In this document: one piece after another, positions 8,077 through 61,335 of the stretch
Position numbering within the stretch: the stretch's first letter is position 1
Layout: every line of letters begins with the position of its first letter
IMG/VR virus record: IMGVR_UViG_3300025697_000003
Length of the DNA stretch: 64,000 nt
From: a virus
Reading direction: 5' to 3' (one strand)
The notes under the pieces: generated by a model
Told to the model about the DNA's origin: nothing
Database searches by the model: none
What the model saw: only the letters and a program-made list of their open reading frames with translations
Translations under genes and position numbers: made by a program

Positions 8077-8133
8077 AGGAAATCAAATCAACTCCTCAGT
8101 GCTCAACGACACAGAGAGGAAAAGGAGGAAATT

Positions 8134-8508: not shown

Positions 8509-8516
8509 CGTAATCC

Positions 8517-8546
8517 AGGGGCGGTCTTCGGGCCGTCCCTACTTCT
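8517..8546 (+). terminator. stem-loop with UUCG tetraloop and weak U tract after the Ser/Ala-rich gene
   Basis: AGGGGCGGTC-TTCG-GGCCGTCCCT then ACTTCT. The 10-bp stem includes two G-U pairs. Confidence 0.45.
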
Positions 8547-8557
8547 AAGGAGAGAAC

Positions 8558-17393: not shown

Positions 17394-18368
17394 ATGAACA
17401 TGAAACTGAAACGAGCAGTAACTATGATAGTGATCTTTGCGGTGACGCTCCTTACGGGGTGTACGCTGTTTACAGGGACCGATGGGATACTAACCTTAGA
17501 TGTCCCAGAATCCGGCTATCCTCCATTTGAAGCAACGCTCACTGCGGGTGGCGTACTCAATGGCACGTACACGTTCGAGGTTGAGGGGAGAACGTACACA
17601 CAGCCTCAGAACGTACTGACAGTCACGATCTACTCTCTGCCATGCGATGTGAAGGTAACGTGGATTGGTAGCGACATTCCACAGGAAGTCACCAAGACGA
17701 TAGGCCTTGAGAATGGCGGACCTTCCATCGGGCGCCCTGTACTCAATGCGATTACAAACCTATGGACAATTCATCCACGGTCTCGATACATTGTGACATT
17801 CCCTGATGCTCACGATCCACAAGGCGGGGATGTAACGCTGATCAATGCGACTGTCTTCCACACAGGGCAGCAATCTGAGAACACGGTGTTCTGCCCTCCA
17901 TACACAGGGATGCACCCTCCGAAGCCAGATGTCTACCATGTTAAGGACGGGAATGGAACGCTTGAAAATGCCTTCATGTTCTTCTCGATTTGGGACGGAG
18001 ACATTGATGTCAATATCAACGATTTCGATGAGTGGAAAGACACCACTGACTATGTTTACGGAGATACAGTCCAATATGGCGGAAAGGGATATAAATGTAT
18101 CTTGGCGCATGAGGCAAGCGCACTCCCAACTAGAGCAAAGTATTGGGCATTGATCGGGACAGTTATTTCCGGCACAGGGCTCCCATACTCTCCGCCAGAT
18201 CAAGGAGTACGTGGCTATCCTGGCGCTGGGACATGTGGCCTTCAATGGACTAAGGAGTTTATTTCTGCTGGAATGACGATCATTACGGCGACATTCGAGG
18301 ATGAGATGGGAGCAACGACTACTGAATCATGGTCGATCCCGACTATGGTGTATCCGGGGTGCTCATGA
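17394..18368 (+). CDS. lipoprotein with CBM5/12-like module
   Basis: Lipobox LLTGC after a hydrophobic signal. WKDTTDYVYGDTVQYGGKGYKCILAHEASALPTRAKYW motif. The start may be ATG 17400. Confidence 0.6.
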   Translation: MNMKLKRAVTMIVIFAVTLLTGCTLFTGTDGILTLDVPESGYPPFEATLTAGGVLNGTYTFEVEGRTYTQPQNVLTVTIYSLPCDVKVTWIGSDIPQEVTKTIGLENGGPSIGRPVLNAITNLWTIHPRSRYIVTFPDAHDPQGGDVTLINATVFHTGQQSENTVFCPPYTGMHPPKPDVYHVKDGNGTLENAFMFFSIWDGDIDVNINDFDEWKDTTDYVYGDTVQYGGKGYKCILAHEASALPTRAKYWALIGTVISGTGLPYSPPDQGVRGYPGAGTCGLQWTKEFISAGMTIITATFEDEMGATTTESWSIPTMVYPGCS

Positions 18369-23781: not shown

Positions 23782-24693
23782 ATGCCAGCAAAAGGCACGA
23801 CACGGCGAGAACCGTGGAACCCAATACTCAAATCATATCCATTCAGTGAACGAGTAAATGCTGTCTCTGTTGGCGCAGAAACCCTGTTCACACGTCTGGT
23901 CGCTCAGGCAGACGATTATGGCAACTACTACGGCAGTCCAGTCAAGATTCTTGCATACCTATATGGTCATCGCTTTGCTGCGGGGCACGTTACCGCTACG
24001 GATACGGGCCGTTGGCGTACCGAACTCGTATCGAACAAGGTCGGACCACTCATTTGCATGTACTCGATTCAGGGTGAAGAGTACCTCCATTTGATCAATC
24101 CGAGGAGAAGGATTCGCAAGGATGTTGCCCCCGATATTAGGTTTCCTAGAGAACCAGCAAACATAGAAGAGAAGGCTATTCTAGAACAACGTATCGAAAA
24201 CGGGCCGGGGACGGGCCGTGGACGGTGCGCTAGACTAGACCTAGACCTAGACAAGACCCAGACTAGACTAGACCCAGAAAAACTATTGGTCGAAAAAGAT
24301 TCGACCGATCTATTCGAAATCTTCTGGAAAGAATTCCTAACCATGAAACGCAATGACGGGAAGATAGCAGCAAGAAAAGCATGGATCACTACCACCGTGA
24401 ATGGACGAACTGGGAAAGTGAATGGACACAAGCCGATTGATCCATCTGTGATCTTAAATGCGGCAAAGAATTATCGGGAATTCTGCATTGCCGAAGGGAC
24501 AGCACCGAACATGATCAAACTTCCTGCTACGTTCGTTGGGCCTGATCGCCACTGGGAAGACTGGAAGAACCATCGAAAGCCATCGAGCAACGGTAGCGGC
24601 GGCAATAGCGGCAAGCGACTGATAGACACAGGTGGATACCGTCACGGCAAAGAGGATTTTCTGAGGACAAATGATAGCAAGGAGGAATCATGA
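23782..24693 (+). CDS. replication initiator / replisome organiser (lambda O-like arrangement)
   Basis: Sits directly upstream of the DnaC-like loader. An iteron array lies inside the ORF. No strong protein motif was recognised. Confidence 0.5.
   Translation: MPAKGTTRREPWNPILKSYPFSERVNAVSVGAETLFTRLVAQADDYGNYYGSPVKILAYLYGHRFAAGHVTATDTGRWRTELVSNKVGPLICMYSIQGEEYLHLINPRRRIRKDVAPDIRFPREPANIEEKAILEQRIENGPGTGRGRCARLDLDLDKTQTRLDPEKLLVEKDSTDLFEIFWKEFLTMKRNDGKIAARKAWITTTVNGRTGKVNGHKPIDPSVILNAAKNYREFCIAEGTAPNMIKLPATFVGPDRHWEDWKNHRKPSSNGSGGNSGKRLIDTGGYRHGKEDFLRTNDSKEES
24230..24306. repeat. candidate replication origin: nine (C)TAGAC/CCAGAC iterons, then an A-rich stretch with inverted repeat
   Basis: cTAGACTAGACCTAGACCTAGACAAGACCCAGACTAGACTAGACCCAGA, followed by GGTCGAA-AAAGA-TTCGACC. 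Confidence 0.55.
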
Positions 24694-25355
24694 TCAGCGG
24701 GACAACCATTGGAGACAGATATGCGGCAACAAGTTTTGACACATTCGAGGCTACGAATCAATCTGGCAACAAGGCGCTTGAAGCGTGTAAGAGATTGGCA
24801 AGCGGCAAATCAGATGGTGTCATCCTGTGCGGACCTGTTGGCACTGGAAAGACGCACCTGCTGATCTCAACAGTGAAAGAGTTCAATCGGCTGCGGACTT
24901 ACATCCCTGCTGAAGAGAGCGGACCTGAAATTGAAGTGCCTCCGATTGCAGACTTGATGGCTGGACAGTATGGAGAAGTCGATAGATCTGCACCGTACTT
25001 GACGCGAGCAGAGATATCCGTTGTCGCCAAGGTCCACTACTGGATGATCTTGGATCTTGCCAAGGCGTTGAGGGACGATGCGCTTGACAGCCACGGAACG
25101 ATGACAGAAGAGTGCATGACGTGCCATCTGTTGGTCATCGACGATCTTGGGAGAGAGAAGGAATCCGAGTTCCTTCGACAAGAGATCGAGAGGGTCATCG
25201 ACTTTAGATATCGCCAGATGTTGCCGACAGCAATCGCTACGAATCACAAACTTGATGAACTGTATGACGTGTACGGCGAACACATGATGTCGAGGCTGCA
25301 GCAATCGTGCGAGATCGTTGAAGTTCTTGGGAATGACTATCGCAGGAAGAGTTGA
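24690..25355 (+). CDS. DnaC/IstB-like AAA+ helicase loader
   Basis: Walker A LCGPVGTGKTHL and Walker B LLVIDDLGRE. ATGA overlap with the initiator gene. Confidence 0.8.
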   Translation: MISGTTIGDRYAATSFDTFEATNQSGNKALEACKRLASGKSDGVILCGPVGTGKTHLLISTVKEFNRLRTYIPAEESGPEIEVPPIADLMAGQYGEVDRSAPYLTRAEISVVAKVHYWMILDLAKALRDDALDSHGTMTEECMTCHLLVIDDLGREKESEFLRQEIERVIDFRYRQMLPTAIATNHKLDELYDVYGEHMMSRLQQSCEIVEVLGNDYRRKS

Positions 25356-31929: not shown

Positions 31930-32511
31930 TTAAAGCGCAACGGTCTGATGGACGATTTCGATATCGTCGTCATTCAGCCCGAGGTACAACATGGTCTCTC
32001 GTTGGTTCGAGTGATTGAATGCCGCCTGTACTACTGCCAACTGCTGATCGAACGTAACGACAGCGTGATAACCGAAAGTCTTTCGCAGTGAATGGGCAGC
32101 GATAGGATCCTGAATTCCCACACGCTTCGCCTCAATCCCCATCTGCCGCGAAAGGTGCTCGCGGCTGTAGACTTCTCGCGTGATTGGATTCCTGAATATC
32201 GCCTCATCTCGCTCGGGGATACGCCCGAGGCTATCCAAGAGGAACCGGAGAGATTCGACAACATTCTCGTTGATGAATATCCGCCGTGGCTTATTCGTCT
32301 TCTTCTCAATGAGCGTGAGGTGGTCACGCATCGTGGTCGTACCATCAAGCCACACTGAGCTCCACGTCAATCCCCGGAGATCGGATACGCGCAGGTTGGT
32401 ATTGCAGCCAGTGACGAAGAAGCAATACATCGCCGCTGTCTTCTCCGTCTTCAAGTTTCGCCTAATTCGCTGGATATGGTCTATTCGCCTAATCGGGTGT
32501 ACACGGATCAT
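31930..32511 (-). CDS. short tyrosine recombinase (catalytic domain only)
   Basis: LRVSDL (Arg), AHSLRKTFGYH (H-x-x-R), NHSNQRETMLYLG (His/Tyr). GAGGTG RBS 6 nt before ATG 32511 (the track starts at GTG 32520). Confidence 0.7.
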   Translation of the reverse strand: MIRVHPIRRIDHIQRIRRNLKTEKTAAMYCFFVTGCNTNLRVSDLRGLTWSSVWLDGTTTMRDHLTLIEKKTNKPRRIFINENVVESLRFLLDSLGRIPERDEAIFRNPITREVYSREHLSRQMGIEAKRVGIQDPIAAHSLRKTFGYHAVVTFDQQLAVVQAAFNHSNQRETMLYLGLNDDDIEIVHQTVAL

Positions 32512-32535
32512 CTTAATCACCTCGATTGCATCATA

Positions 32536-34373: not shown

Positions 34374-35501
34374 TTATACATTCACCGGCATAACTACCCA
34401 CGATTGAAGCACGCGCCCCGGGACTGTATCTGGAGAGCTTGAGAACGTCCCCGCCTGCAGTCGCCCCCCGAGAGATACGCGCACTGTTTCAGATTTCCCG
34501 AACTTTAGAACGTCCTCGAGTAGCGAACCGTTAAAGCTCACCGGCTCACCGTCCGCGCTTGGTGAATCGTCAAGCCTTACATTTTCGCTATAGCTCCCGA
34601 GGTCACGGCAACCGCTGGACATCTGCAGAACACTAGAACCGCCTACAGTGGCAAGCGTTACCGCTAAGGAATCACGAAAGGCGACAATGAGCCCGCGCCT
34701 TACCGCCGATAGCAAGGCTTTTCTATTCACTGTGAACTCTACCGCGCACGCTTTGGGAATTACGCGCTCAAAATCCGGGAACTCCTCAGGGATACCCCGC
34801 AACTGATAGCAAGCAGACGCGAAAGAGACCACAAGCCGCTCATAATCCCCGTGGATAATTTCAAGCCGCACGCTTTCCGAGGACTTAACAAGCGTTGCAA
34901 TCCTGGCCAGTTCTGCAGCATTGACTAGGACGGCCCCTTCTTCGTTGCAATCCGTAGCGAACTCCTCAAGCAGTAGACGGAAACCGTCTGTAGAGGCGAA
35001 CTTGACGCGCCCCTCGCTATATATCACGTTGACACCTGCAAGCTCTGGACGATTCCCGGTTTTTGAGCTCGCCGCCTTGAGTCGCTTTGTTAGCCCCTTG
35101 AACACGTCGCCGGCGAATACTCCGAGTGTGAAGCTCGGAGCCGCGCCCGGTGTATCTGGGTAGTCCTCAATGGTCAGAGTCGGAATGACCGCGCCCCCGA
35201 TTGTCAGAGTACCGGCCTCAGTTGATAGAACAACCTCACCGGCTGGAAGTTTCCCGGTTATCTTTGCCAGTATCGACGCGGACACAATAACGGAATCCGG
35301 CCCCTCGTCTTTATAGGTCAAGCAGTCAGGGGACGAATAACCCCACGTTTGCAGATTCGTTGCGGACAACTGCAACTCCCCGGGTAGTGCGTCAATACGA
35401 ACCGTCTGCAGGATAGGCATTCTTGAGGACTTACCCCCCGCAACCTTTCCCGCTTGCTTAACTGCTTGCTGCAGCTCTTTTGCTTCAATGATGGCCTGCA
35501 T
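34374..35501 (-). CDS. dnaN: DNA polymerase III beta sliding clamp
   Basis: 376 aa. MQAIIEAKELQQAVKQAGKVAGGKSSRMPILQTVRIDALPGELQLSATNLQTW...TIEDYPDTP matches the beta-clamp layout. Confidence 0.75.
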   Translation of the reverse strand: MQAIIEAKELQQAVKQAGKVAGGKSSRMPILQTVRIDALPGELQLSATNLQTWGYSSPDCLTYKDEGPDSVIVSASILAKITGKLPAGEVVLSTEAGTLTIGGAVIPTLTIEDYPDTPGAAPSFTLGVFAGDVFKGLTKRLKAASSKTGNRPELAGVNVIYSEGRVKFASTDGFRLLLEEFATDCNEEGAVLVNAAELARIATLVKSSESVRLEIIHGDYERLVVSFASACYQLRGIPEEFPDFERVIPKACAVEFTVNRKALLSAVRRGLIVAFRDSLAVTLATVGGSSVLQMSSGCRDLGSYSENVRLDDSPSADGEPVSFNGSLLEDVLKFGKSETVRVSLGGRLQAGTFSSSPDTVPGRVLQSWVVMPVNV

Positions 35502-35503
35502 GG

Positions 35504-35896
35504 TTACACCGCCCCGATTGTTTCCGCGTATCGTTCGGTTTCCTGATCGTGGTTGTGACAAATCCCCGCAATCATTGCACCCTCTGAGCCGCGCACGTGC
35601 AAACGGATGTAGCAGCACTGAGCCCCCCGCGCTTGATTGTCAAACGACTTGTCTAAGCCCTTACCGCTTACCTCGTTCCTGGACAACCCCAGCCGCGTGA
35701 CGTTGTTCTCACCGTCAATCAACGTCTGGAGATTCGATAGGACGGCATCGATAAACTCCGGGTTCCCGTCAATCCGCACCCCGCACGCGCCATACGTCGA
35801 ACCCTTGGCCTTATACGGCAATGGCGCCATATACTGTAGGGGATCCTGACCGGGTGAGAGTTCCTTCCATGTTTGCAGTGCTTCCTTCTTTAGCAT
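35504..35896 (-). CDS. hypothetical protein, first gene of the minus-strand operon
   Basis: GAGGTGAT RBS 7 nt upstream. The stop lies 2 nt before the dnaN ATG. Confidence 0.5.
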   Translation of the reverse strand: MLKKEALQTWKELSPGQDPLQYMAPLPYKAKGSTYGACGVRIDGNPEFIDAVLSNLQTLIDGENNVTRLGLSRNEVSGKGLDKSFDNQARGAQCCYIRLHVRGSEGAMIAGICHNHDQETERYAETIGAV

Positions 35897-35949
35897 CTCG
35901 TATCACCTCAATCAGATATTACCTATAAATGGCGACAGTCTCAATACCC

Positions 35950-35979
35950 TTGCCCCGTCGCTATGTCTCGCCGTATAAT
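35950..35979 (+). promoter_or_regulatory. sigma70-like promoter TTGCCC-N18-TATAAT
   Basis: Perfect -10 hexamer at 35974-35979. Points toward the 36371 gene. Confidence 0.45.
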
Positions 35980-35985
35980 GGTCGT

Positions 35986-36370
35986 ATGTCACGCTTATCC
36001 CTTTCACGCAGCACGAAGAAGAATAACGCCGAAAACGCAGCAGGGCTGCAAAGGACAGCACCCCATCTAACACGGAAGCCTGGGGTGCCAAAGGAGTGTC
36101 TTTCGACGGGTCCTTGCTGCTCAGCCCTGTCATTTCCCCGTGACGCGAGCAGTCGTCTTCCAGGGCCACACTTTGCTGGATACGGAGAGTTCGCATGGTC
36201 GCTCCCTCATCCGTCCCTCGACCTTGACCGCGGCTTGGACCATCAAGTACGGTTATCGGCATGGGTAGGGTTCATGTGTTGCAGCACTACGCTGATCAAG
36301 ACAATCACCCCCTTTGTAGTCCACGCGGGACTACCACACAGAATAGGCGAGAACTGATGGAAGAGTCAAT
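35986..36370 (+). other. ~385-nt apparently non-coding, GC-rich, stem-rich region (long leader or ncRNA candidate)
   Basis: Local stems include GCACCCCA-N15-TGGGGTGC (36058-36088), GCAGC-AGG-GCTGC and GTAGTCC-ACGCG-GGACTAC. The ORFs here have Arg/Ser/Pro-rich non-protein-like composition. Confidence 0.35.
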
Positions 36371-37258
36371 ATGAGGGATGACAATCCTCTAACAATGGCA
36401 GACCTCCCATCATTCCCGATAGAACGGGAGAGATACGGCCCTTTGTACGCTTTCTGGGACGGGGTTGCGCCAATGTACATGGAAGAGGTGTATACTCTTC
36501 CCAATATGACTCTATGTGTCGCAGTTGCAGCAAAAGACGGTGTTGTTTTGGGTACAGATACACAGGAAACACGATCGGATGGATCCAAACGCAATGGCGT
36601 CAGCAAGATTGTAGAAGTTAGCGACACGATGGCCGTAGGGCTTTCTGGAACTGGGAATGTTGCCAAGGGTATTCTAGGACACCATGGCCTATTGGAACAT
36701 GCGCGAAGTCTGAAAGACGCAGACCAGATCGGAGACTTCTTCGGCAGTTGCTTCCTGGGAAGCGTCCAAGGGCACTCGCATAGGCCAGACTTTTATAGGG
36801 AAACATATGACTTGAAAAACGGTGCGGTTGATCCGAAAGTTCTAGATCTGCGACTACTGCTTGCATCCTTCGACGGGGAAGCATCTATTGGAGAGGTATC
36901 TCCTCAGACTGGCTATTCATTTGCCCCGATGCAGAGAGCGCATTGCATAGGAGTAAATGCCTTTGCAAACGCCCTCCTTCCAACGCTTGCCCCAATTGGG
37001 AAGCCTTTGCCAACAGTTGCCGAAGCAGAGATAATTGTGGCGTTATGCCTGATGGTTACAGCAGATCGCTTTTATGGTGTCGGCGAGCCATTTGACATTG
37101 TGAGGATTACAAAGGGAAAGATAGAGCGATATAGCACCGCAGAGAAACCACAAGTGTTGAAATCGGCTAGGAAGTTGTGCAAAGCATGGAAAGAAATGTT
37201 CAGGATCATCTCTGAAGAAGCGTCTAGCAACTCTGAAGAACTAAATCCATCAACTTAG
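36371..37258 (+). CDS. proteasome beta-subunit/HslV-like Ntn threonine protease
   Basis: TLCVAVAAKDGVVLGTDTQETRSDGSKRNGVSKI places Thr1, Asp17 and Lys33 at canonical spacing counted from Thr47. GLSGTG follows. Alternative start Met46 (ATG 36506) lies directly before the Thr. Confidence 0.65.
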   Translation: MRDDNPLTMADLPSFPIERERYGPLYAFWDGVAPMYMEEVYTLPNMTLCVAVAAKDGVVLGTDTQETRSDGSKRNGVSKIVEVSDTMAVGLSGTGNVAKGILGHHGLLEHARSLKDADQIGDFFGSCFLGSVQGHSHRPDFYRETYDLKNGAVDPKVLDLRLLLASFDGEASIGEVSPQTGYSFAPMQRAHCIGVNAFANALLPTLAPIGKPLPTVAEAEIIVALCLMVTADRFYGVGEPFDIVRITKGKIERYSTAEKPQVLKSARKLCKAWKEMFRIISEEASSNSEELNPST

Positions 37259-37514
37259 CCCTTTCATCCCTGTGCGAGCATCTAAACGCGAACTCATCCA
37301 GATATTCCTGTAGATGGATGGCCGATACATGATGGTAGACACCGACGAGTCCTCGCTTGAAAAGCGACCACGCATTCTCCACATGGTTCACGTGCACACC
37401 ATTCTCTGAGTAGTGGAGCCAATGATTGACAGTACGATGTAGCCCGAACTTGGACAGGATCTTGAACCGCCGCGCTTGGTCTGTGTAGATCGTCTTGACA
37501 TAACCAAGGTTCAT
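37224..37514 (-). pseudogene. IS1595-family (ISXO2-like) transposase, C-terminal fragment
   Basis: HRTVNH...GVHVNHVENAWSLFKRGLVGVYHHVSAIHLQEYLDEFAFRCSHR. The N-terminal Zn-ribbon and first catalytic region are missing, and an in-frame stop lies just upstream. Confidence 0.65.
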
Positions 37515-37703
37515 GGTACATACGCGGTTGATCTCAGCGTGAGTGAGCCTATCAATGCGTGTGTCCTAAGTGCAAAAACCCTTATTGGGATAGACCTAGA
37601 CGCGATTCACAGAAGAAGAACTAACACACACAAGGTAGGTGCGCTCTTGAATTCACAAGGCCTAATTCCGTACTCTGCTGCATCAAAGGGATAAGGGGGT
37701 CGT

Positions 37704-38411
37704 ATGTCCTCAAATGGTACAACCAAGAAAAGGGTAACAGATTACGATTGGCCCGCTTTGCTCGCTGAATTCCTTACCCAGCCTACGATGTCTATTCAAG
37801 ATTTCGCAGAGTTCAAGGGTGTACCGTTCTCCACTGTCAAGAATCACAGCGATAAGAAAGGCGATTGGATAACCAAGCGTAATCAGCATTACAGAGAGAT
37901 CCACCAACTCACTTTCGATCGTATCGCAGGCATCATTGCCGAAACTCGTGCAGATGACATCTCATCTTTCAGAGCACTAGAAGAACGCCTGCAGGCCGTT
38001 GTCCTCAAATCGCTTGAATTGCTATTCCCGCCAGAAGATGCACCGCTTGAGGCCGTTCTAGCAGCAACCGCACGACTCGAGGAAATGTCAGCGGACAAAC
38101 TAAGCACGATCATAAACACCGGCATGAGAACGCTAACCGAGACAGGCAGGCATCGACGTCTATTATCTGGACAAGCAACCGCCATTTTCTCGCGTGCTGA
38201 ATTGCCCGATATTGAGCTTCCTATCCCGCTGGAAGAAGCTAAAATGTTGGAATTACGCAGCAGATTAGCACAACAAGCCCTCAACGCTATCGACAACGGG
38301 CAACCGCTTGACGTGGAGTACACCGTGGCAGAATCGCCTGAGATCGCCGGAGATCCTGACCCCGTGGCCAGTTCCGCCGGTTCGCCTGGAGTTCGCCGCC
38401 ACAAAGAATAG
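37704..38411 (+). CDS. hypothetical protein with N-terminal HTH-like region (small-terminase-like by eye)
   Basis: AAGGGGG RBS. MSIQDFAEFKGVPFSTVKNH followed by a long helical region. Confidence 0.4.
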   Translation: MSSNGTTKKRVTDYDWPALLAEFLTQPTMSIQDFAEFKGVPFSTVKNHSDKKGDWITKRNQHYREIHQLTFDRIAGIIAETRADDISSFRALEERLQAVVLKSLELLFPPEDAPLEAVLAATARLEEMSADKLSTIINTGMRTLTETGRHRRLLSGQATAIFSRAELPDIELPIPLEEAKMLELRSRLAQQALNAIDNGQPLDVEYTVAESPEIAGDPDPVASSAGSPGVRRHKE

Positions 38412-39865: not shown

Positions 39866-40025
39866 AGGTGCATGGCCAAGAAGGAAGTGCGGACAGACGG
39901 AGATGAAGACACAGGCAGGTATTGTCCATGCAGCAGGATCCCTAAGAGCTGGTGGGTGAAGTTAAGGTACAGGCCACGAGATGTGAGGATGAAGAACTGT
40001 CGGACTGACGATGATTGATAGGAGA

Positions 40026-40556
40026 ATGAAGATGAAAGTAGAGATTCTGCGTGAAGCTGGATTTGAAGAAGCACTGCTGGGGATATCTCTGAGCTACAAC
40101 AGTGGTGGAGATATGAAAGTGGTTGCTGACAAGCTGGTAAAGAGAGGCGGGAGTCATTCGAAGTTTCTCGAGAGCATTGCAGTGTGGCTGGATATCGAAG
40201 CTCCTCGATATTGGTGGCAGCAATTTGCTACATATCGTATTGGGACATCTGCTCAATCAGAATCTACGATGCACACGCTGCTTGATGGAGAGCTCACTGA
40301 AGATAACTTCTCGTGTGAGGTACATGATGTGTATCTTGACATCATCAACGCAGTGATCAAGGCAGGAGATCTTGCCCATGCGAAAGGACTTCTTCCTGAG
40401 TCCTTCCTACAGCGGCGGATTGTCTGCACGAACTACATGGCGTTGAAGCGGATGATCCAGCAGCGACGGCACCACAAGCTGATAGAATGGCAGATATTCT
40501 GTACTCAAGTTGTGATACAGGCAGAGCATCCAGAGTTTCTTGAGGTGGCGAAATGA
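40026..40556 (+). CDS. ThyX-like protein with a degenerate RHR signature
   Basis: Alignable by eye to ThyX: FLESIAVWLDIEAPRYWWQQFATYRIGTSAQSES versus F.F.I...R....Q..RHR..S.SQ.S. C-terminal RRHHKLIEWQI versus R..SHAQWEI. It carries TYR in place of RHR. Confidence 0.55.
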   Translation: MKMKVEILREAGFEEALLGISLSYNSGGDMKVVADKLVKRGGSHSKFLESIAVWLDIEAPRYWWQQFATYRIGTSAQSESTMHTLLDGELTEDNFSCEVHDVYLDIINAVIKAGDLAHAKGLLPESFLQRRIVCTNYMALKRMIQQRRHHKLIEWQIFCTQVVIQAEHPEFLEVAK

Positions 40557-41104
40557 TTCTTAACGACAGACAGATCCACGAGTTGTGCATGTTTTCAGAC
40601 GATCCAATGATCAAGCCATTCCTATCTATGCAGGTAGGCAAGCCATCGTTCGGCTTGGGCTCCTTCGGTTATGACCTAAGACTAGGAAGTAATTTCCTTC
40701 TGGCATCACGGATTGACATCATCGCTGACCCGATCGATTACGATTCGAATCTATGCCATGTTCTCAAGCGCGAGGACGAGTTTATCCTGCATCCTGGACA
40801 CCACGTCCTAACTGAGTCCGTGGAGACGTTTAACATGCCTAACGATGTCTGTGGAGTGTGCTGGGGCAAGTCGTCTTACGCTCGTTGCGGGCTTTTGGTG
40901 AACGTAACGCCGCTGGAGCCTGGATGGAAAGGAATTCTGACTCTTGAGTTGGCGAATGTGTCTCCGAATCCGATTCGATTGCATGTCGGCAAAGGGATCG
41001 CACAGGTAGTCTTCTTCCGAGGCGAGAGGCCGGATCGAACGTACACTGAGAAAGAGAGCGGCGGCATATATCAGAATCAGATTGGAGTTACAGTTCCGCA
41101 GTAA
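40553..41104 (+). CDS. dcd: dCTP deaminase (dUTPase superfamily)
   Basis: MILNDRQI...GSFGYDLRLG...GKSSYARCGLLVNVTPLEPGWKGILTLELANVSP...GIAQVVFF. Confidence 0.85.
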   Translation: MILNDRQIHELCMFSDDPMIKPFLSMQVGKPSFGLGSFGYDLRLGSNFLLASRIDIIADPIDYDSNLCHVLKREDEFILHPGHHVLTESVETFNMPNDVCGVCWGKSSYARCGLLVNVTPLEPGWKGILTLELANVSPNPIRLHVGKGIAQVVFFRGERPDRTYTEKESGGIYQNQIGVTVPQ

Positions 41105-47013: not shown

Positions 47014-47547
47014 ATGGCGGAAGAATGGAGATCAGTCGTTGGGTACGAGGGATGGTACGAGGTTAGCAATCTCGGGCGGATACGAAATGTGAAGAAGAGG
47101 CAAGGTACTGTTGTTGGCAGGATGATGAGTCCATCAACGAATCGACATGGATATTCATACGTGTGTCTCCGTCAAGATAATGAACAGAAGACAGCATTAG
47201 TTCATCGCGTAGTGATGGCTGCATTTGTAGGCCCATGCCCAGATGGATTAGAAACAAACCATAAAGATGGAATCAAAGGAAACTGCCAACGGTCGAATCT
47301 TGAGTATACGACTTCTTCAGAGAATCAAAGACATGCGTATAGACTCGGACTGAAAACTCCATGGGATGAGAGAGGAGAAAAGAACCCCTACGCTAAACTT
47401 ACCGAGAGCAAGATCCACAATATCCGCAGAAGGCTAAAGCACGAAACGCAGACAGCTATTGCTAAGAGCGTCGGGATGTCTAGGGCTGCTATAGGGCTTA
47501 TCGCAAATGGAAAAACATGGGGATGGCTAGAAGAGGAGCCAGTGTGA
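47014..47547 (+). CDS. NUMOD4/HNH_3-type homing endonuclease
   Basis: EEWRSVVGYEGWYEVSNLGRIRN...NRHGYSYVCL...LVHRVVMAAF...ETNHKDGIKGNCQRSNLEY...ENQRHA. Confidence 0.75.
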   Translation: MAEEWRSVVGYEGWYEVSNLGRIRNVKKRQGTVVGRMMSPSTNRHGYSYVCLRQDNEQKTALVHRVVMAAFVGPCPDGLETNHKDGIKGNCQRSNLEYTTSSENQRHAYRLGLKTPWDERGEKNPYAKLTESKIHNIRRRLKHETQTAIAKSVGMSRAAIGLIANGKTWGWLEEEPV

Positions 47548-49136
47548 CTAGACAGACGTTTTCAGGAAAAGAGGCAATTGCTGCATCGCGTGCGAAAGCC
47601 GGTGCGAATGCGTATCAGTGGGCAAATTCCTATCGGGTCATGCCCGATGGATGCACCTACTCGCTATTTAATCCTGATCGGTATATGGAATACCTATATG
47701 AGATATATATTGAAGCATCTCGTCTTAGAATCCCAGGTGGTAGAATAACTGTAATGAAGAGCGTTCAGACCGGGTTCTCAGAATGGGCAATCAATATGGC
47801 ATTATGGTTCATGGATGTGAAGAAAGAACCCTGCCTGTACATGCTTCAGACGGACAAGCAGTTAGGTCCATTCGTACTCGCTAGGCTAGACCCTGCGATT
47901 GAGATCTCACCATATATCAGAGAAGGATTCTCTGGAGAGGCTGATAGTGTTGGGCTAAAGATCGGATGGAAGCAACCAATATACTTCCGTGGTGCGAAGT
48001 CCCCAGGAAGCTTGGTTGAGTTCTCTGTCGGAATGGTAGTGCAGGACGAGAAAGACCAGATGGAGCCATTGGGCGTTGCTGCATCTCAAGGGCGTCTACA
48101 GGGAAGGAAACACAAATGGGTGCTGCGACTCTCTAACCCATCGATACCGGAACACGGCATTCACATCGATTACCTGGAAGGATCAAAGGGCGAACATGCT
48201 CTGTGGTGTGAGAAGTGCCAAGAGTACAAGGTCCCGAGGTGGCCTGACAGCGCGAACGTAAATCATCCGTATGATGTCATGTGCCCAGACTACGATCACG
48301 TCCTAGACAAGAAAAACGGTAAATGGATACACGAAGAGCCTGAGAATCCTCACAAGTCCTATTCAATGGGGCATTTTGCATCACCGACAGTACAGCCGAT
48401 TGAAATGCTCGAGGAGTGGGAACTCATCCGAGGGGATCCTACGAAGATGGGCGCATTCTACAATCTACGGCTTGGACTTCCTTGGGCAGAGGCTGGAACG
48501 CGAATCACAGACGTATCAGGCTTGCCATCGATGGGAGAGATGATCCCTTCCTACGATCGACAGAGCGTGATGGGCGTCGACGTAGGGACATTGCTCCATG
48601 TGGTAGTAAGGCGATCGTATGGCGGCATCTTGTGGGCAGGGAATCTGGTTGGGAGTGCTCAGTGGGAAGAGCTTGGACGAATGATGCACGCATACAATGT
48701 TGACCATTGCGCGATCGATGTCCGACCCGAGACGACGAAAGCCTCAGAGTTCGCAAGGCTATTCCCAGGAAGAGTCACTCTGGTCGAGTACAACCCCAAT
48801 CCTATGGCCACGGAGGAGAAGTACGGGGAAAAGAACGGAGTACCTCTGTACAGCGGCCTGAGGACACCGATGATCGACAATGCAGTGGCGAAGATTCTTT
48901 CTAAGACTGAGGGAGTTCCGTCGAATCTACCGACAGACTTCTGGGACCACTTCAGGGCAGTATCAAGACAGTACGTGACGAGGGCGGACGGGGCTGTATA
49001 CGTATCGTATGTGCATACGAAGCCTGACCATTACGTCCATGCGTTCAACTACGCGGTATTTGCAGGGAGCCGATTCGAAGGCTCTGACGGTGAGAGGACA
49101 CAGTTCTTCAGCCCGAGAGGGAGGGGGAGACGATGA
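47544..49136 (+). CDS. terL: terminase large subunit (lambda GpA-like)
   Basis: MKSVQTGFSEWAIN (KSxxxGxS P-loop variant as in gpA), VVQDE, and nuclease-type VMGVDVG / CAIDVRPE. GAGGAG RBS and GTGA overlap with the HNH stop (the ORF track starts at 47517). Confidence 0.75.
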   Translation: MTRQTFSGKEAIAASRAKAGANAYQWANSYRVMPDGCTYSLFNPDRYMEYLYEIYIEASRLRIPGGRITVMKSVQTGFSEWAINMALWFMDVKKEPCLYMLQTDKQLGPFVLARLDPAIEISPYIREGFSGEADSVGLKIGWKQPIYFRGAKSPGSLVEFSVGMVVQDEKDQMEPLGVAASQGRLQGRKHKWVLRLSNPSIPEHGIHIDYLEGSKGEHALWCEKCQEYKVPRWPDSANVNHPYDVMCPDYDHVLDKKNGKWIHEEPENPHKSYSMGHFASPTVQPIEMLEEWELIRGDPTKMGAFYNLRLGLPWAEAGTRITDVSGLPSMGEMIPSYDRQSVMGVDVGTLLHVVVRRSYGGILWAGNLVGSAQWEELGRMMHAYNVDHCAIDVRPETTKASEFARLFPGRVTLVEYNPNPMATEEKYGEKNGVPLYSGLRTPMIDNAVAKILSKTEGVPSNLPTDFWDHFRAVSRQYVTRADGAVYVSYVHTKPDHYVHAFNYAVFAGSRFEGSDGERTQFFSPRGRGRR

Positions 49137-54998: not shown

Positions 54999-55334
54999 AT
55001 GACTGAGAACTTGACGGAGACTGTGGCAGAGAGCATGACGGCGCATATCTTCCATGAGCAGATTCAGCTTATGAAAGACACGCTCGACCGCGGACTGATG
55101 ATATATCAGGGAGATAAGACCAATCGCGGGTACAGGCACTACAAGCAGGAGACGATGAGAACGTTCCATGCGTTCATCGACGCCTTCTGGGGAACACTGC
55201 TCAAGGATGGATTGGTAGAGGTATGCCAGTGCGGGGCGCCCACGCGACGGTGGAGCGAATGCCCGTGCTGCGGCGGTTCAGGGTTCAAGGTAGTAGAGGA
55301 GGACTCTAGTGGGCTTCATGAAAGCACTGGATAG
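54999..55334 (+). CDS. hypothetical protein with CxxCxGxG-like motif
   Basis: GAGGTGA RBS. CQCG...CPCCGGSG. Confidence 0.5.
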   Translation: MTENLTETVAESMTAHIFHEQIQLMKDTLDRGLMIYQGDKTNRGYRHYKQETMRTFHAFIDAFWGTLLKDGLVEVCQCGAPTRRWSECPCCGGSGFKVVEEDSSGLHESTG

Positions 55335-56712
55335 GGCATTAGGCACCCCCGTCAAAGAAGCGGCGGAGATGACCCCCAGCCGATTAGTTAGCCAGGAGCG
55401 CCCGAGCTACAACGACGGGCGCGTTACTCGTCCTGCTGGCCTCCAGAATATCTTCAACGCTTTCAAAGAGGATCCTGCTGTCTTTACCGCGATTGAGAGA
55501 ATTGGTGCGTCGATCGCAGACATCCCTCTTATCATGATCGAAGCGGAACAGGCAAAGGAAGATCGCAAGTTCGTCAGCGCACGCCACTTCCACGCAGCGT
55601 CACGGTCTAAGACCTACGCTGGCGTGATGGAGAAATGGGCGTCGATCGAAGGCGGACGAGTGATCAGGCAAGATCCTATTCTCGACATGCTGGCGAATCC
55701 CTGTCCCTCTGCCGGTGTGTCGGGAAACCTCATGAAGCGTGCCATTGTCGCGTACATGGAGCTTACTGGCATGGCCTACGTCGAGAAGCTCTACGATCCC
55801 AAGGACGATAAGAAGGTCACTGGCCTCTGGCCGTTGATCAACCCTCTCAAGATGCAGGTTATTGCTGGAAAGACACGGCTCATTGATGGGTACGTGTGGA
55901 ATGGTTCGAGAGGCGCTGTCGTTTTCAAACCAGAAGATATGATTTACTTCCGCAGCTTCAATCCAGATACCCCGTACTACGGCTACTCACCAACGCAGGT
56001 ACTGCGCGTAGTCATCGGTACTGATCTCAAGGCCCTGAACTGGAATGCTGTGTTCTTTGCCAATTCCGCTAGGCCAGAAGGCATCTTATCATCCGATCAA
56101 TACCTCAACGATGGGGATGTAGAGATGATCATGCAGACCTGGGATGACAACCACAGGGGAGAGGAAAACCAGAGCAGACCTGCTGTTATGGGAAAAGGCA
56201 TGAAATGGCTTCCAACTGGATCTAGCCACCGTGATATGGATTTCCCGTCTCTACGTCGTTACAGCAAGGAAGAGATCCTTGGATCATACGGAGTTCCTCC
56301 TATAGTTGCAGGGGATTATACTGATGCTAACCGGGCGTCTTCTGAGATAATGTACCGATTATACTATGAAAATGGCATACTCCCTCGATGCGACGTGATG
56401 GAAGACTTCTGGAATACCGCATTGATGGAGCCAGGGAGCGGCAAGCGCATTGTCTACGATCTCGGAGCTATCGAAGCATTGAAAGGAGACGTCCTCGAGA
56501 TGGCCAAGGTGTCGGCCAGGGTGAAAGAGGAATTCTCAGTCAACGAACGAAGGGTCTTCCTTTGGAATCTTCCGATTATCAAGGGGAACGACGGTAATGC
56601 TCTGTGGGATCCGAAGCGAGAGGAAATCATTGGATACGCTCCGATTCCATCAGAGGTTGCAAGCGAGAATCAATTGACGGCTGGTGATGGAACAACTGGT
56701 GGACCTGAATAA
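55309..56712 (+). CDS. portal protein (HK97 family)
   Basis: Size and position fit. FFANSARPEGILSSD...WDDNHRGEENQSRPAVMGKGMKWLPTG. GAGGAGG RBS before GTG 55309. Confidence 0.8.
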   Translation: MGFMKALDRALGTPVKEAAEMTPSRLVSQERPSYNDGRVTRPAGLQNIFNAFKEDPAVFTAIERIGASIADIPLIMIEAEQAKEDRKFVSARHFHAASRSKTYAGVMEKWASIEGGRVIRQDPILDMLANPCPSAGVSGNLMKRAIVAYMELTGMAYVEKLYDPKDDKKVTGLWPLINPLKMQVIAGKTRLIDGYVWNGSRGAVVFKPEDMIYFRSFNPDTPYYGYSPTQVLRVVIGTDLKALNWNAVFFANSARPEGILSSDQYLNDGDVEMIMQTWDDNHRGEENQSRPAVMGKGMKWLPTGSSHRDMDFPSLRRYSKEEILGSYGVPPIVAGDYTDANRASSEIMYRLYYENGILPRCDVMEDFWNTALMEPGSGKRIVYDLGAIEALKGDVLEMAKVSARVKEEFSVNERRVFLWNLPIIKGNDGNALWDPKREEIIGYAPIPSEVASENQLTAGDGTTGGPE

Positions 56713-58749: not shown

Positions 58750-58884
58750 ATGAAACGAATATGTCCGACCTGCGGAATGGTACAAACAAATCAAACGGAT
58801 GTTTGTCCGAGATGTAAAAAGAAGACCGTTTCCAAAGGTCGGCGTATCGTTCAGAAGGGATTAGCTAAAGGGAGGGCGCAGTAA
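58750..58884 (+). CDS. small zinc-ribbon protein (44 aa)
   Basis: CPTCG...CPRC. TAATG coupling to the protease gene. Below the ORF-track cutoff. Confidence 0.4.
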   Translation: MKRICPTCGMVQTNQTDVCPRCKKKTVSKGRRIVQKGLAKGRAQ

Positions 58885-59963
58885 TGGATAGGAAGGCACT
58901 AACAGTAACCGAGATTGCGGTGAAGGGAGAGGACGGGCATGTAGTTCTCGACCGCGGCGAGATCACGACTCTGTTGAAAGAAGGGAACGTTGCATCGATG
59001 TTCAAGTACGCATTGCATGAACGATCTCTGCCAGAGTCCATAGGAGAGCCGGAGAGGGTGTTTAATGTCGGCGCCCAGGGTGGAGTGCTGTTAGACACGC
59101 GCCCGAAGGCCGAATCGGTAATCTCGTCTTCCTCTCCAGATCGTGACGGTGACGTCATGTGGCAATCAGGCATGGTCATCACGACCAACTACGAGAACAA
59201 CCCGACTGTGTTTGGTCAGCACGATCACGATATCCCGGTGGGATTTACTGAAGTGATCAAGCAATACAGGGATCTAAGTTGGGCTCAGTGGCAATGGCTC
59301 AACGATGTGGAACAGTCGCTAGGGAAAGATTACTACGAGATGTGGGTTAAGCATGTGCTTAACTGCGTCTCTGTTGGCTTCATGATCAACGAGTGGGCGC
59401 CTCTTGACAAAGGCGACATGTGGGGCGGCTGGGACATCAAGGAGTGGGAACTCCTCGAGCATAGTCCAGTCGGACTGCCATCGAACAGAGAAGCGATGCG
59501 AACGGACGGCATGAAGTCGATGTTCCGTGCTTATGCAGAGCAAGTGTCTGAAGGCCCCTCACCGATTCTGAAGCAGATGTTTGAAGAGTTCGAACACGAA
59601 GGAGCACCGTTGTCTGTCCCTGTGAATATCACTCTCACAAACGAGAAGGATCTACGACAGGCGATCAAAGACGGCGTTTCTGACGCATTGAAAGAAGGCG
59701 GAGAAGCAGCGGTGGAAATGACATGCTCTACTAAGGTCGACGGTGATAAAGCACTTGAGACTTTTGAAGAGATTCGAATGGCAGCAGCGGCGGGGGTTCT
59801 TCCAGTCGACAAAGCCTTTGAAATGATTGGAGATCTAGTCGACGGATACAAGGCTGTCATTGTAGAGAAGGATGCTGCGGTGGCGACGGCGGAAGGACAA
59901 ATCCAAGATCTGAAGCAAGAGCTAGTAACGCTCAGTGCTGGGGTCGTGGAGAAATTCGGATAA
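58884..59963 (+). CDS. prohead protease (HK97/S78-like) with C-terminal scaffold-like helical region
   Basis: SSPDRDGDVMWQSGMVITTNYENNPTVFGQHDHDIPVG. Helical Ala/Glu-rich C-terminus. Immediately upstream of the capsid gene. Confidence 0.7.
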   Translation: MDRKALTVTEIAVKGEDGHVVLDRGEITTLLKEGNVASMFKYALHERSLPESIGEPERVFNVGAQGGVLLDTRPKAESVISSSSPDRDGDVMWQSGMVITTNYENNPTVFGQHDHDIPVGFTEVIKQYRDLSWAQWQWLNDVEQSLGKDYYEMWVKHVLNCVSVGFMINEWAPLDKGDMWGGWDIKEWELLEHSPVGLPSNREAMRTDGMKSMFRAYAEQVSEGPSPILKQMFEEFEHEGAPLSVPVNITLTNEKDLRQAIKDGVSDALKEGGEAAVEMTCSTKVDGDKALETFEEIRMAAAAGVLPVDKAFEMIGDLVDGYKAVIVEKDAAVATAEGQIQDLKQELVTLSAGVVEKFG

Positions 59964-59976
59964 CGAGGTGAGCAAC

Positions 59977-61335
59977 ATGGCGCGAGATCTGAGCCAAATG
60001 ACCCCAGAAGAGAAAGAGATGGTCCTGCAAGGGGCTAAGATTCTACTTGCCGGGGGAACAAATGATGCAGAGCCAGAGATTCCTGCTGATGTGCAGAAAT
60101 TTATGGACGATAACAACTATACGATCGAGGCGAAGAAGCCTACGGTCATCGGTGCTGTTGATACTGCTACGGCAGTTCGTAGCACTGAAGAGACCCAGCT
60201 TGACGGCATTGGTCCGCAGATGAAGGCACCTGCAGGCCCAGCGATTATTCACGAATCGACGAAGCGAACAAAGAAGGACTTTTTGATCGTTAATGCAGTC
60301 GGTATCTTGACACAAGGACGGGACTACGAGCATTTCCTAGATTCCGGCCTTGAAATGGACGTGCTGAAGGCACAGAAGGCTTTCAGCCGCGAACCTAGTG
60401 AAGAGATCAGGAAGGAAATCAAGGAACGCGAACAGCAATTGAAAGACCTGAACATCGGGTCTGAAGTTGCCGGCGGATTCTTCATTCCTGAAGAAGTCAA
60501 TACCGAGATGATTAAGAATCTCCGCGGCCAAGAGATTTGGATGAACATGGGCGTCGACTACATGCCTAATTCTCCGAAGTATCAGTCTTGGCCGAAGGAA
60601 GGCGACGATCCTAACATCACGTGGACTGGCGACACGCCTCCGAGCGATATCGAAGACACAGACATGGAGTACGGCGAAGTTACGTTGTCCCTCCATCAGA
60701 TGGCGTGTCTCGTTAAGATTCGTCTCAACTTGCTCAAGTATGCTCGGGACAATGTTGAGAAGAGGGTCAGGAACCAGATTGTACAGTCGATGGCCGTTGA
60801 ACAGACGAAGGTTGGATTGCGCGGAACTGGCGGGAAGCAGCCTTTGGGCTTGTTCAATCTTCCGTCGATGGTTTCGTACACGACTGACCTTGGCTCCGCA
60901 ATCCCGACCTTCAACAACCTGCTCGATCTGCAGAGTGTTGTTCGTGGACGAGATGGTGTCGTTGATGAAACTCGTAGCGCGTGGGTTATGTCTGAAACGT
61001 ACTTGGGCCTGTTCAAGAAATCAAAGACTGGGACAGCGCAGTATGACTACATCGTTGACCTTACTAATATGCCTCCAAACCGTATCCTCGGCTTGCCGGT
61101 ATACACGTCGTCCCAGATTCGAACCGATCTAGGGACTGGATCCGATTCTCGATTGATGTTGGTAGGCGACAAGAACCAGATCATGTTGGCCGATGGCGGA
61201 CAGACTGAAATCACGATTCTCAAGGAACTCTTCGCACGAAAGTTCCAGGTCGGGTTGTTGGCTTCCAGAGAGATCGACTTCGGCGTCCAGCAAGAGAAGC
61301 AACTACAGTTCCTCACGGGCATTAAGGCTTCGTAG
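59977..61335 (+). CDS. major capsid protein (HK97 fold)
   Basis: GAGGTGA RBS. Position after the protease and ~450-aa size. Delta-domain-like helical N-terminus. Confidence 0.75.
   Translation: MARDLSQMTPEEKEMVLQGAKILLAGGTNDAEPEIPADVQKFMDDNNYTIEAKKPTVIGAVDTATAVRSTEETQLDGIGPQMKAPAGPAIIHESTKRTKKDFLIVNAVGILTQGRDYEHFLDSGLEMDVLKAQKAFSREPSEEIRKEIKEREQQLKDLNIGSEVAGGFFIPEEVNTEMIKNLRGQEIWMNMGVDYMPNSPKYQSWPKEGDDPNITWTGDTPPSDIEDTDMEYGEVTLSLHQMACLVKIRLNLLKYARDNVEKRVRNQIVQSMAVEQTKVGLRGTGGKQPLGLFNLPSMVSYTTDLGSAIPTFNNLLDLQSVVRGRDGVVDETRSAWVMSETYLGLFKKSKTGTAQYDYIVDLTNMPPNRILGLPVYTSSQIRTDLGTGSDSRLMLVGDKNQIMLADGGQTEITILKELFARKFQVGLLASREIDFGVQQEKQLQFLTGIKAS

Follow-up and report, generated by a model that had tools for sequence, protein, structure and literature searches.

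Stand-alone proteasome homologues are numerous, and hardly any has an assigned function. A survey by Fuchs, Alva and Lupas (PMC8665760) added 22 new families, some phage-borne (PPH, AAH); its authors reported no genomic context suggestive of function and propeptides only in beta subunits and HslV, and transposons are unmentioned there. A separately described system is the IS1595 family of insertion sequences (IS), whose hallmarks are 8-bp target-site duplications (TSDs) and a transposase with a Zn-finger and a DDE_Tnp_IS1595 domain, most members carrying a single gene (PMC8101967). Here we describe a locus that belongs to both: a gene for a proteasome beta-type homologue (positions 36371-37258) inside an IS1595-family element (35990-37699), within a 64,000-nt stretch of viral DNA (IMG/VR record IMGVR_UViG_3300025697_000003, hereafter the window) that comes from a tailed phage. 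We consider it probable that this element is a fossil two-gene IS1595 transposon with a crippled transposase, carrying a proteasome beta-type threonine hydrolase as optional cargo. The lineage of this protease offers a strict and testable context for a stand-alone proteasome homologue.

Boundaries and history of the element

The element and its immediate flanks comprise the following features (IRL and IRR, left and right inverted repeat; ORF, open reading frame; aa, amino acids; positions are those of the window).

35912-36262, minus strand, and 35929-36357, plus strand: mutually antisense ORFs in the spacer, both crossing the boundary between IS and phage, without homologues
35950-35979, plus strand: candidate sigma70-like promoter, TTGCCC-18-TATAAT, a 10/12 match to the consensus, in phage DNA just outside IRL
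35982-35989: left copy of the TSD, TCGTATGT, with the identical 8-mer at 37700-37707; boundaries homologous to those of loci L025, L009 and L034
35990-37699: IS1595-family element, 1,710 bp, bounded by 24-nt inverted repeats and flanked by a perfect 8-bp TSD
35990-36013, plus strand: IRL, CACGCTTATCCCTTTCACGCAGCA, matching IRR at 20/24 positions and 90% identical to the IRL of L025
36014-36348: variable spacer inside the element, formerly read as a structured RNA region
36349-36380, plus strand: conserved start-codon block, GAGAAcTGATGGAAGAGTCAAtATGAg, with a Shine-Dalgarno-like GGAAGAG 5 nt before the ATG; 91% identical to L025 and L006
36371-37258, plus strand: protease ORF, a proteasome beta-type N-terminal nucleophile (Ntn) hydrolase homologue, 295 aa as pro-form, ATG start
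36428-36508, plus strand: conserved 27-codon core of the N-terminal extension or propeptide, ending at the invariant Met46
36509-36511, plus strand: codon ACT of Thr47, the predicted N-terminal nucleophile (Thr1)
36557-36559, 36605-36607 and 36647-36649, plus strand: codons of Asp17 (GAT), Lys33 (AAG) and Gly47 (GGA), each checked
37224-37556, minus strand: remnant of an IS1595-family DDE transposase, the C-terminal 110 aa (stop codon 37224-37226; residues from 37227-37556 by tblastn)
37557-37675: right-end region of the element, starting at a deletion junction at about 37556/37557
37676-37699, minus strand: IRR, reverse complement CCCCCTTATCCCTTTGATGCAGCA
37700-37707: right copy of the TSD, TCGTATGT, containing the ATG (37704) of a 235-aa phage gene

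Across the 64-kb window the inverted-repeat motif has just two copies, inverted relative to each other, where zero would be expected by chance. Under one and the same boundary definition, perfect 8-bp TSDs flank the window element (TCGTATGT) and those of L025 (ACAAAGGC) and L009 (AAGGCCGT); a fourth element, L034 from Ca. Bipolaricaulis, has a perfect one as well (AAGAGGCG), and homologous inverted repeats are found in L025, L008, L010, L009 and L034. These repeats and duplications indicate that IRL, variable spacer, protease, transposase and IRR transpose as a single unit. Unlike single-gene IS1595 members, the window element has a second, convergent, proteasome-like gene inside its inverted repeats, which makes it a cargo-bearing variant.

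Its transposase survives only in part. The remnant overlaps the protease 3′ end tail-to-tail by 35 nt, matches PF12762 (8e-19) and scores 67 bits against NF033547, below the 75-bit cutoff because it is truncated; the full-length Zn_ribbon and DDE proteins of L008, L009 and L025 reach 156-166 bits with the same model. At the nucleotide level the window matches L025 in four blocks: IRL (90%); 32 nt spanning the protease start codon (91%, a block found in L006 too); the 3′ third of the transposase (window 37240-37555 and L025 1696-2011, 86% identity); and the right end (window 37557-37699 and L025 2713-2844, 72%). The jump in L025 from 2011 to 2713 corresponds to a clean deletion of about 701 bp that took transposase residues 1-171 and its 5′ region, and with these residues deleted the window copy is without autonomous mobility.

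The two genes do not share one history. The remnant is 91% identical to the L025 transposase in amino acids and 86% in nucleotides, whereas the proteases of the same two loci are 28% identical; compared with L006, the protease is 84% and the transposase 49% identical. Such discordant identities imply that protease alleles have been exchanged between transposon backbones. Sequence comparison places the exchange junctions at the start-codon block, which is common to otherwise unrelated cargo alleles, and at the protease 3′ end. That the two genes diverged strictly together was also considered and is rejected, the identity matrices being discordant. The ratio of non-synonymous to synonymous substitution rates (dN/dS) is 0.12 for the protease against L006 and 0.07 for the dead transposase remnant against L025; since the dead remnant is equally low, most of the divergence is older than the insertion. 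The encoded protease is identical in all phage copies (one cluster member), and the element is present in every assembly of the phage examined (dozens of contigs, several samples). A search through the exact flanking proteins returned no phage variant lacking it, all contigs carrying the element, and more distant phages share only one flanking gene.

The element sits between two divergent phage genes, one of 130 aa (minus strand) and one of 235 aa (plus strand). The uninterrupted site is predicted to have read TAATGG-TCGTATGT-CCTCAAATGG (also given as ...CCGTATAATGGTCGTATGTCCTCAAATGG...). In this reconstruction the ATG of the 235-aa gene (37704) lies 6 nt after the TATAAT box, a spacing that looks like a leaderless-mRNA arrangement. 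The putative promoter, recognised by its match to the consensus, now reads into the element and probably served the 235-aa gene originally. After the insertion, the ATG of that gene is preceded by an AAGGGGG of IRR, Shine-Dalgarno-like and 4 nt upstream.

Junctions at two other loci carry observations of their own. In L034 (3897-3950) a solo inverted-repeat end abuts the element with only the 8-bp TSD between them, and in L009 (3400-3415) the TSD is directly followed by host sequence identical to the first 7 nt of the inverted repeat. Both junctions suggest that the IS prefers to insert beside sequences resembling its own ends.

Catalytic residues, fold and pre-sequence of the protease

Counting Thr47 as residue 1, Asp63 falls at +17, Lys79 at +33 and Gly93 of the GTG motif at +47; Met46 directly precedes Thr47, so that residue -1 is Met and not Gly. 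A word-indexed search covering 5.8 billion clusters returned only six relatives. In the alignment of these close homologues Met46, Thr47, Asp63, Lys79 and G93-T-G95 are invariant (6/6), as are several residues ahead of the Thr. An exhaustive HMMER search of 1.84 billion representatives (E<1e-3) recovered 63 proteins, most of them 240-270 aa long and beginning exactly with Met-Thr. Throughout a 35-sequence family alignment (about 20% identity) the Asp and the Lys are each kept in 35/35 sequences, Met-1 in 34/35 and Gly47 in 32/35; the nucleophile is Thr in 31/35 and Ser in the remaining four. The second-shell positions equivalent to Ser129, Asp166 and Ser169 are unconserved, and an acidic residue is conserved at position 232, two positions ahead of Phe234, the Asp166 equivalent. 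Homologues were found neither in GenBank phages (tblastn) nor in 185,579 GTDB species genomes scanned with the close-family alignment; the GTDB members of the family were reached only through the transposase search described below.

Several lines of comparison place the protein among proteasome subunits. Pfam PF00227 (Proteasome) matches at 30.4 bits, above its gathering cutoff of 22.4, over residues 49-95 only. In phmmer comparisons with PDB sequences, Thr47 aligns to Thr1 of the Archaeoglobus beta subunit, and the N-terminal extension with Thr47 aligns to M. tuberculosis PrcB at its propeptide and HG|T processing site; PHROG 1040 (HslV family) is a weak match (E 0.0024). An AlphaFold (AF2) monomer model built with the 35-sequence alignment reached a predicted local distance difference test (pLDDT) of 86.2 and a predicted template modelling score (pTM) of 0.82. 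In it, residues 1-39 are disordered, the core is confident from about residue 41, an insertion of about 25 residues lies at about 133-159 and a long C-terminal helix spans 260-288. Foldseek returned 1175 PDB matches at E<1e-3, the best of which are all 20S subunits (E about 1e-11, probability 1.00, template modelling (TM) score on target 0.7-0.77); the highest query-normalised TM-score, 0.57, belongs to Anbu 5nyg_A, yet this ranks 50th by E-value. With a broader family profile (A2), the M. jannaschii beta subunit is matched along the entire length (2.3e-27), its Thr1 aligned to the family Thr, and alpha subunits are matched as well (6.5e-23). In BFVD, phage HslV-like and proteasome-like proteins are present at 11-19% identity to the window protease, the HslV-like ones being the top fold matches. 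The four-layer alpha-beta-beta-alpha Ntn/proteasome fold and the primary catalytic residues are thus established as far as modelling and profile comparison allow.

Upstream of the Thr, the frame is open in 6/6 loci and reads R-Y-G-P-L-Y-A-F-W-D-x-V-A-P-M-Y-M-E-D-V-Y-T-L-P-x-M, the core of the window extension being E-R-Y-G-P-L-Y-A-F-W-D-x-V-A-P-M-Y-M-E-E-V-Y-T-L-P-N-M. Over these 27 codons the ratio of non-synonymous to synonymous differences (pN/pS) is 0.16-0.45, at a pS of 0.45-0.9, which argues for conservation at the protein level and hence for a pro-form being made. Judged by this codon pattern, the 27 codons ahead of Thr47 are translated and under purifying selection, giving a pro-protein with Met at -1. 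The wider family starts at the equivalent Met, which makes Met46 the ancestral start residue. Two routes to the active Thr1 form are conceivable: the Met46|Thr47 bond may be cleaved, or translation may begin internally at Met46 and the Met then be removed.

An earlier, sequence-only reading of this gene anticipated much of the above. The Thr1-Asp17-Lys33 spacing it had announced is exact to the codon, with the triad conserved among homologues, and the proteasome/Ntn fold it had proposed was recovered by both the PF00227 search and the monomer model. It was right to ask whether a propeptide is removed or translation begins at ATG 36506, and the 27 upstream codons point to a pro-form. Its word 'canonical' should be narrowed: judged from the alignment, it fits Thr, Asp, Lys and Gly47 of the phage protease and does not extend to Ser129, Asp166 and Ser169, which are unconserved.

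Recurrent pairing with the transposase and its interpretation

Wherever the sequence downstream of a homologue can be read, an IS1595 transposase or what is left of one lies close by; in 9/10 loci it converges on the 3′ end of the protease gene. The pairing recurs in unrelated bacteria. Among the close loci, a convergent IS1595 transposase or remnant stands at the protease 3′ end in 7/7 independent loci, and the pattern reaches relatives at 22-28% identity. The 3′-end overlaps across loci measure 35, 32, 11, 35, 4 and 11 nt.

L008 and L009: full-length Zn-ribbon and DDE_Tnp_IS1595 transposase, overlapping the protease 3′ end
L024 and L006: convergent transposase running to the contig end
L001: convergent transposase, full length and frameshifted
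Window: last 110 transposase residues only
L010: last 17 transposase residues only
P0011 (L025): convergent transposase with the same 35-nt overlap
P0019 (L026): transposase at the contig end
P0014 (L027): 21-residue transposase remnant 1.3 kb away

Four of these loci (window, L001, L010 and L027) combine an intact protease ORF with a transposase that has been truncated, frameshifted or almost entirely lost. Because loci found through the protease favour intact proteases, a reciprocal search was anchored on the transposase across the 185,579 species genomes. Its eight closest transposase relatives (54-71% identity) come from metagenome-assembled genomes (MAGs) of Ca. Bipolaricaulota and Thermotogota. 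According to the family hidden Markov model (HMM), a convergent proteasome-like ORF abuts the transposase in L032 (E 4e-12) and in L034 (E 1e-4, with a Met-Thr start); PF00227 is undetected in both cargo proteins, so these assignments, made with the custom family HMM only, are the weaker ones. L036 has a split ORF with a D...K...AGxG signature, probably proteasome-like cargo, and L029, L031, L033 and L035 have the transposase without proteasome-like cargo. Among 71 more distant IS1595 loci, none has proteasome-like cargo by the family HMM. One MAG (STA_74) holds both the cargo-less L031 and the cargo-bearing L034. This coexistence, with the other cargo-less sisters, indicates that the cargo is characteristic of this IS clade but optional, which argues against an obligatory role in transposition.

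Some of these loci have further neighbours or domains. The cargo of L032 (5026-5877, minus strand) has a rubredoxin-like Zn-ribbon (CPKC...) inserted shortly after the Asp17 equivalent; we know of no description of such a combination of Zn-ribbon and proteasome-like domain. In L035 (5422-6324, minus strand) a DUF3800 protein occupies the slot adjoining the transposase 3′ end. In L027 (4227-5517) an N6/N4 DNA methyltransferase gene comes next after the proteasome-like gene and overlaps it, with the 21-aa transposase remnant beyond, and L008 has a SmaI-like restriction endonuclease nearby. A weak Transglut_core gene in L001 (4207-4944) lies about 300 nt past the decayed element, outside the IS, and is probably coincidental.

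We favour cargo over cofactor because the protease is intact beside a dead transposase, because divergent alleles have been swapped on near-identical backbones, and because cargo-less sisters exist. In the sequence of events that we propose, the transposon would have inserted, with 8-bp duplication, into a promoter-proximal intergenic site between the divergent 130-aa (minus strand) and 235-aa (plus strand) genes, and a deletion of about 700 bp would then have removed the N-terminal two-thirds of its transposase, ending self-movement. The cargo would be made as a pro-protein with a pre-sequence of about 27 residues and act from Thr47, exposed by self-cleavage or, in a fraction of the molecules, by internal initiation and methionine aminopeptidase. 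The phage copy now appears positioned for transcription from the captured phage promoter at 35950-35979. By analogy with Anbu/BPH-type homologues, the protein may act without an AAA+ unfoldase on peptides or loosely folded proteins. Its benefit would go to the carrier or to the element, as with a conflict or fitness gene, rather than to transposition as an obligatory factor; the three observations that favour cargo would also fit a conflict-type gene. For all of this the phage is a secondary setting, the insertion being a fossil.

Several observations weigh against this interpretation, as regards either the element's history or the activity of its protein. The exact 24-mer and 21-mer over the reconstructed uninterrupted site are absent from viral contigs and metagenomes, so that the insertion is deduced from inverted repeats and TSD and was not seen directly. 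The protease-anchored loci are biased towards intact proteases, and in the L024 protease one in-frame stop takes the place of Glu110 (about 392-394) beside a transposase that looks intact, a stop that could reflect a pseudogene, a sequencing error or recoding. The close-family (A1-only) profile gave no PDB match at 1e-5, for which reason the broader A2 profile was needed; sequence homology consists of the N-terminal 50 or so residues, that broader profile and the predicted fold. The equivalents of Ser129, Asp166 and Ser169 are Val195, Phe234 and Val237, which replaces the second-shell support of Thr1, and Met stands at -1 in place of the beta-subunit Gly, a point against the predicted self-processing. 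Autolysis of beta subunits uses the Gly at -1. Catalytic activity of the window protein is a prediction from its residues. PADLOC gave no match for the protease, the transposase or the flanking genes, leaving a defence role without direct support. Finally, dN/dS was discarded as a sign that the phage maintains the gene: with the dead remnant equally low, it is uninformative.

Competing explanations differ from optional cargo in what they take the protease to do. It might be a working part of the transposon that processes, degrades or remodels the transposase or a host factor, for instance by limiting transposase lifetime or disassembling the transpososome, its expression coupled through the gene overlap. 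We judge this unlikely. It would explain why pairing and 3′ overlap are kept across protease lineages at 22-28% identity, why the pairing is re-created even after module swapping, and why the family is essentially confined to an IS context in the 185,579 species genomes while missing from all 71 distant IS1595 loci. Transposition does not, however, require the protease, which the close transposase relatives L029, L031, L033 and L035 lack, L031 even sharing a MAG with a cargo-bearing copy; the protease has stayed intact after loss of the transposase in four loci, and most IS1595 members have a single gene (PMC8101967). Quite unlikely in our view is a protein that is not a protease at all and serves instead as a sequence-specific transpeptidase or ligase like connectase, or as a dead scaffold retaining its N-terminal extension. 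The proteasome-like family reportedly includes a monomeric ligase, connectase; the hydrophobic equivalents of Ser129, Asp166 and Ser169 would suit such a role, and the Met at -1 speaks against autolysis of the classical kind. Fuchs and co-workers report no propeptides other than in beta subunits and HslV (PMC8665760). Yet without Thr1 chemistry the conservation of Thr/Ser, Asp, Lys and Gly47 over 35 sequences would be difficult to account for, most family members begin with Met-Thr and would expose Thr1 on removal of the Met, and the model appears to have no connectase-like helical insertion between S3 and S4.

The remaining alternatives concern the phage. The sequence-only reading had placed the gene in a phage accessory module, as a phage-evolved protease degrading host defence or regulatory proteins, possibly with a structured RNA upstream. 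As an origin this is largely refuted, and overall we hold it very unlikely: IS1595 inverted repeats and a TSD bound the gene, a transposase remnant that had gone unrecognised adjoins it, and its relatives lie in bacterial chromosomes and MAGs, with none in GenBank phages and the BFVD homologues at 11-19% identity. The RNA is likewise rejected. The roughly 360 nt from IRL to the start codon lie inside the element; the spacer is unconserved even in L006, whose protease is 84% identical, has no Rfam match and folds no better than shuffles (z -0.88 and -0.23, both strands). In L008 and L010 IRL directly precedes the protease ORF, which marks the spacer as variable filler. Gene callers annotate a 94-aa protein there, whose plus-strand frame can start at a duplicated ATG (35985), and both spacer ORFs are probably spurious. 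A partner gene conserved ahead of the protease is rejected too: the small divergent ORFs there are non-homologous between loci and have no family match. What speaks for a phage function, by co-option after insertion, is that the gene is intact, fixed in the sampled phage copies and downstream of a good candidate phage promoter, and that phage-borne proteasome homologues exist (PPH and AAH in PMC8665760, and the BFVD matches). That the protein stands alone in a phage, with no AAA+ partner, was correctly seen: an AAA+ unfoldase is found neither in the 64-kb window nor in any homologue locus. Possible, although on the unlikely side, is that the gene does nothing in the phage and is simply the undecayed half of an IS that arrived and was crippled not long ago, reaching fixation by hitch-hiking. 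The remnant is still an open frame with a dN/dS of 0.07, implying too little time for decay, and the identical protein in all phage copies leaves no within-phage variation to examine. On the other hand, the gene has gone to fixation across dozens of contigs and several samples, the protease was precisely spared by the deletion that took out the transposase, and three other loci with dead transposases have kept it.

Beyond optional cargo, we more speculatively raise the idea, which we hold rather unlikely, that the proteasome-like protein is a functional module of a hitherto unrecognised two-gene IS1595 class: either a self-compartmentalising protease controlling the turnover of transposase or host factors, or a rapidly exchanged conflict cassette (defence, counter-defence or addiction). 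Were it true, a transposon would be spreading a conflict cassette between hosts of the Bipolaricaulota/Thermotogota type and phages. This would be the first proteasome homologue with a context pointing to function, and its propeptide, cut at an unusual Met|Thr bond, would be the first conserved one in a homologue other than beta subunits and HslV. The protease lineage travels in an IS1595-type transposon, swaps backbones and has reached a phage, and intact elements of 1.7-2.7 kb provide a defined experimental system for transposition, host fitness, phage infection and Met|Thr activation. For annotation, the case illustrates that an 'auxiliary phage gene' can be a transposon fossil; the relic also takes in the neighbouring 96-aa 'transposase' ORF and, upstream, the stretch that had looked like a non-coding RNA.

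Phage setting and comparison with known systems

The phage has no close cultured relative, its terminase being at most 23% identical to that of any cultured one. Other genes of the window are as follows.

24690-25355: IstB/DnaC-like loader, the only P-loop match in the window, 11 kb from the protease
31930-32520: tyrosine integrase
34374-35618, minus strand: sliding clamp
40011-41104: ThyX-like protein and dCTP deaminase
47517-49136: large terminase
55309-56712: portal
58884-59963: protein matching major-head and head-maturation-protease PHROGs
59935-61335: major head protein

An HNH homing-endonuclease-like gene (NUMOD4 and HNH_3, 47014-47547) lies directly upstream of the terminase and overlaps its start. 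The regions 5837-9610, 2742-4691 and 17394-18368 hold a DegT/DnrJ aminotransferase (1e-120), a GFO/IDH/MocA oxidoreductase and a group-1 glycosyltransferase, a sugar-modification cluster, together with two large proteins bearing CBM_5_12 carbohydrate-binding modules that are probably tail fibres. The ThyX-like ORF (40011-40556, 181 aa) scores 25.6 bits with Pfam at a cutoff of 24.8 and is directly followed by the dCTP deaminase; possibly it is a thymidylate synthase, truncated or divergent, that belongs to a nucleotide-modification module.

Among the known systems closest to the window protease are the 20S beta subunits of archaea and actinobacteria (PF00227, MEROPS T1). The protease shares with them the alpha-beta-beta-alpha Ntn fold, the Thr1/Asp17/Lys33/Gly47 spacing, an N-terminal pre-sequence and, in the model, last residues packed on the core, and its C-terminal part aligns too. 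It differs in having Met rather than Gly at -1, Val/Phe/Val for Ser129/Asp166/Ser169, the insertion at 133-159, the C-terminal helix at 260-288 and carriage by a transposon, and no alpha subunit, ARC/Mpa/PAN or Pup system lies near the gene. HslV (ClpQ) is a Thr1 protease homologue as well, linked through the weak PHROG 1040 match and the phage HslV-like proteins that head the BFVD matches; there is no HslU, the window protein is much longer than the compact HslV of about 175 aa and has extra C-terminal elements, and sequence and profile matches favour archaeal beta and alpha subunits over HslV.

Like Anbu, BPH and the 22 stand-alone families (PMC8665760), the protease has no AAA+ partner, and a Met-Thr start is common to its broader family, Anbu and BPH. 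Similarity to alpha as well as beta subunits was reported for WPH/group II and is seen here too. Group I lacks the C-terminal S12/H5 elements (PMC8665760); the window protein has 249 residues after Thr47. PPH is about 140 aa long against 295 aa for the window protein, the 22 families being compared here by their published description only (PMC8665760); unlike them, the window family has a fixed IS1595 context and a conserved pre-sequence. The window subfamily has a 46-aa extension, unlike the Met-Thr-start Anbu of about 240-260 aa. Anbu reportedly has ATP-grasp, alpha-E and transglutaminase partners in its operon, an account attributed to Valas & Bourne in 2008; these are absent from the window and from the inside of all elements.

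The element as a whole resembles other IS1595 members in its Zn-ribbon and DDE_Tnp_IS1595 transposase, terminal inverted repeats, 8-bp TSDs (PMC8101967) and size of 1.7-2.7 kb, and departs from them in its conserved second, convergent proteasome-homologue gene, whose alleles are swapped; the window copy is moreover defective. Full-text literature searches returned no paper linking a proteasome homologue to an IS and nothing relevant on IS1595 passenger genes. Some IS1595 subgroups (ISPna2+, ISNwi1+, ISNha5) are said to carry passenger genes, an account ascribed to ISfinder and to Siguier et al. in 2009. A proteasome-like protease in a phage is not new in itself. What appears to be undescribed, within the searchable literature, is a proteasome-homologue lineage that serves as conserved cargo of IS1595 elements, has a Met-terminated pre-sequence and undergoes cassette-like exchange.

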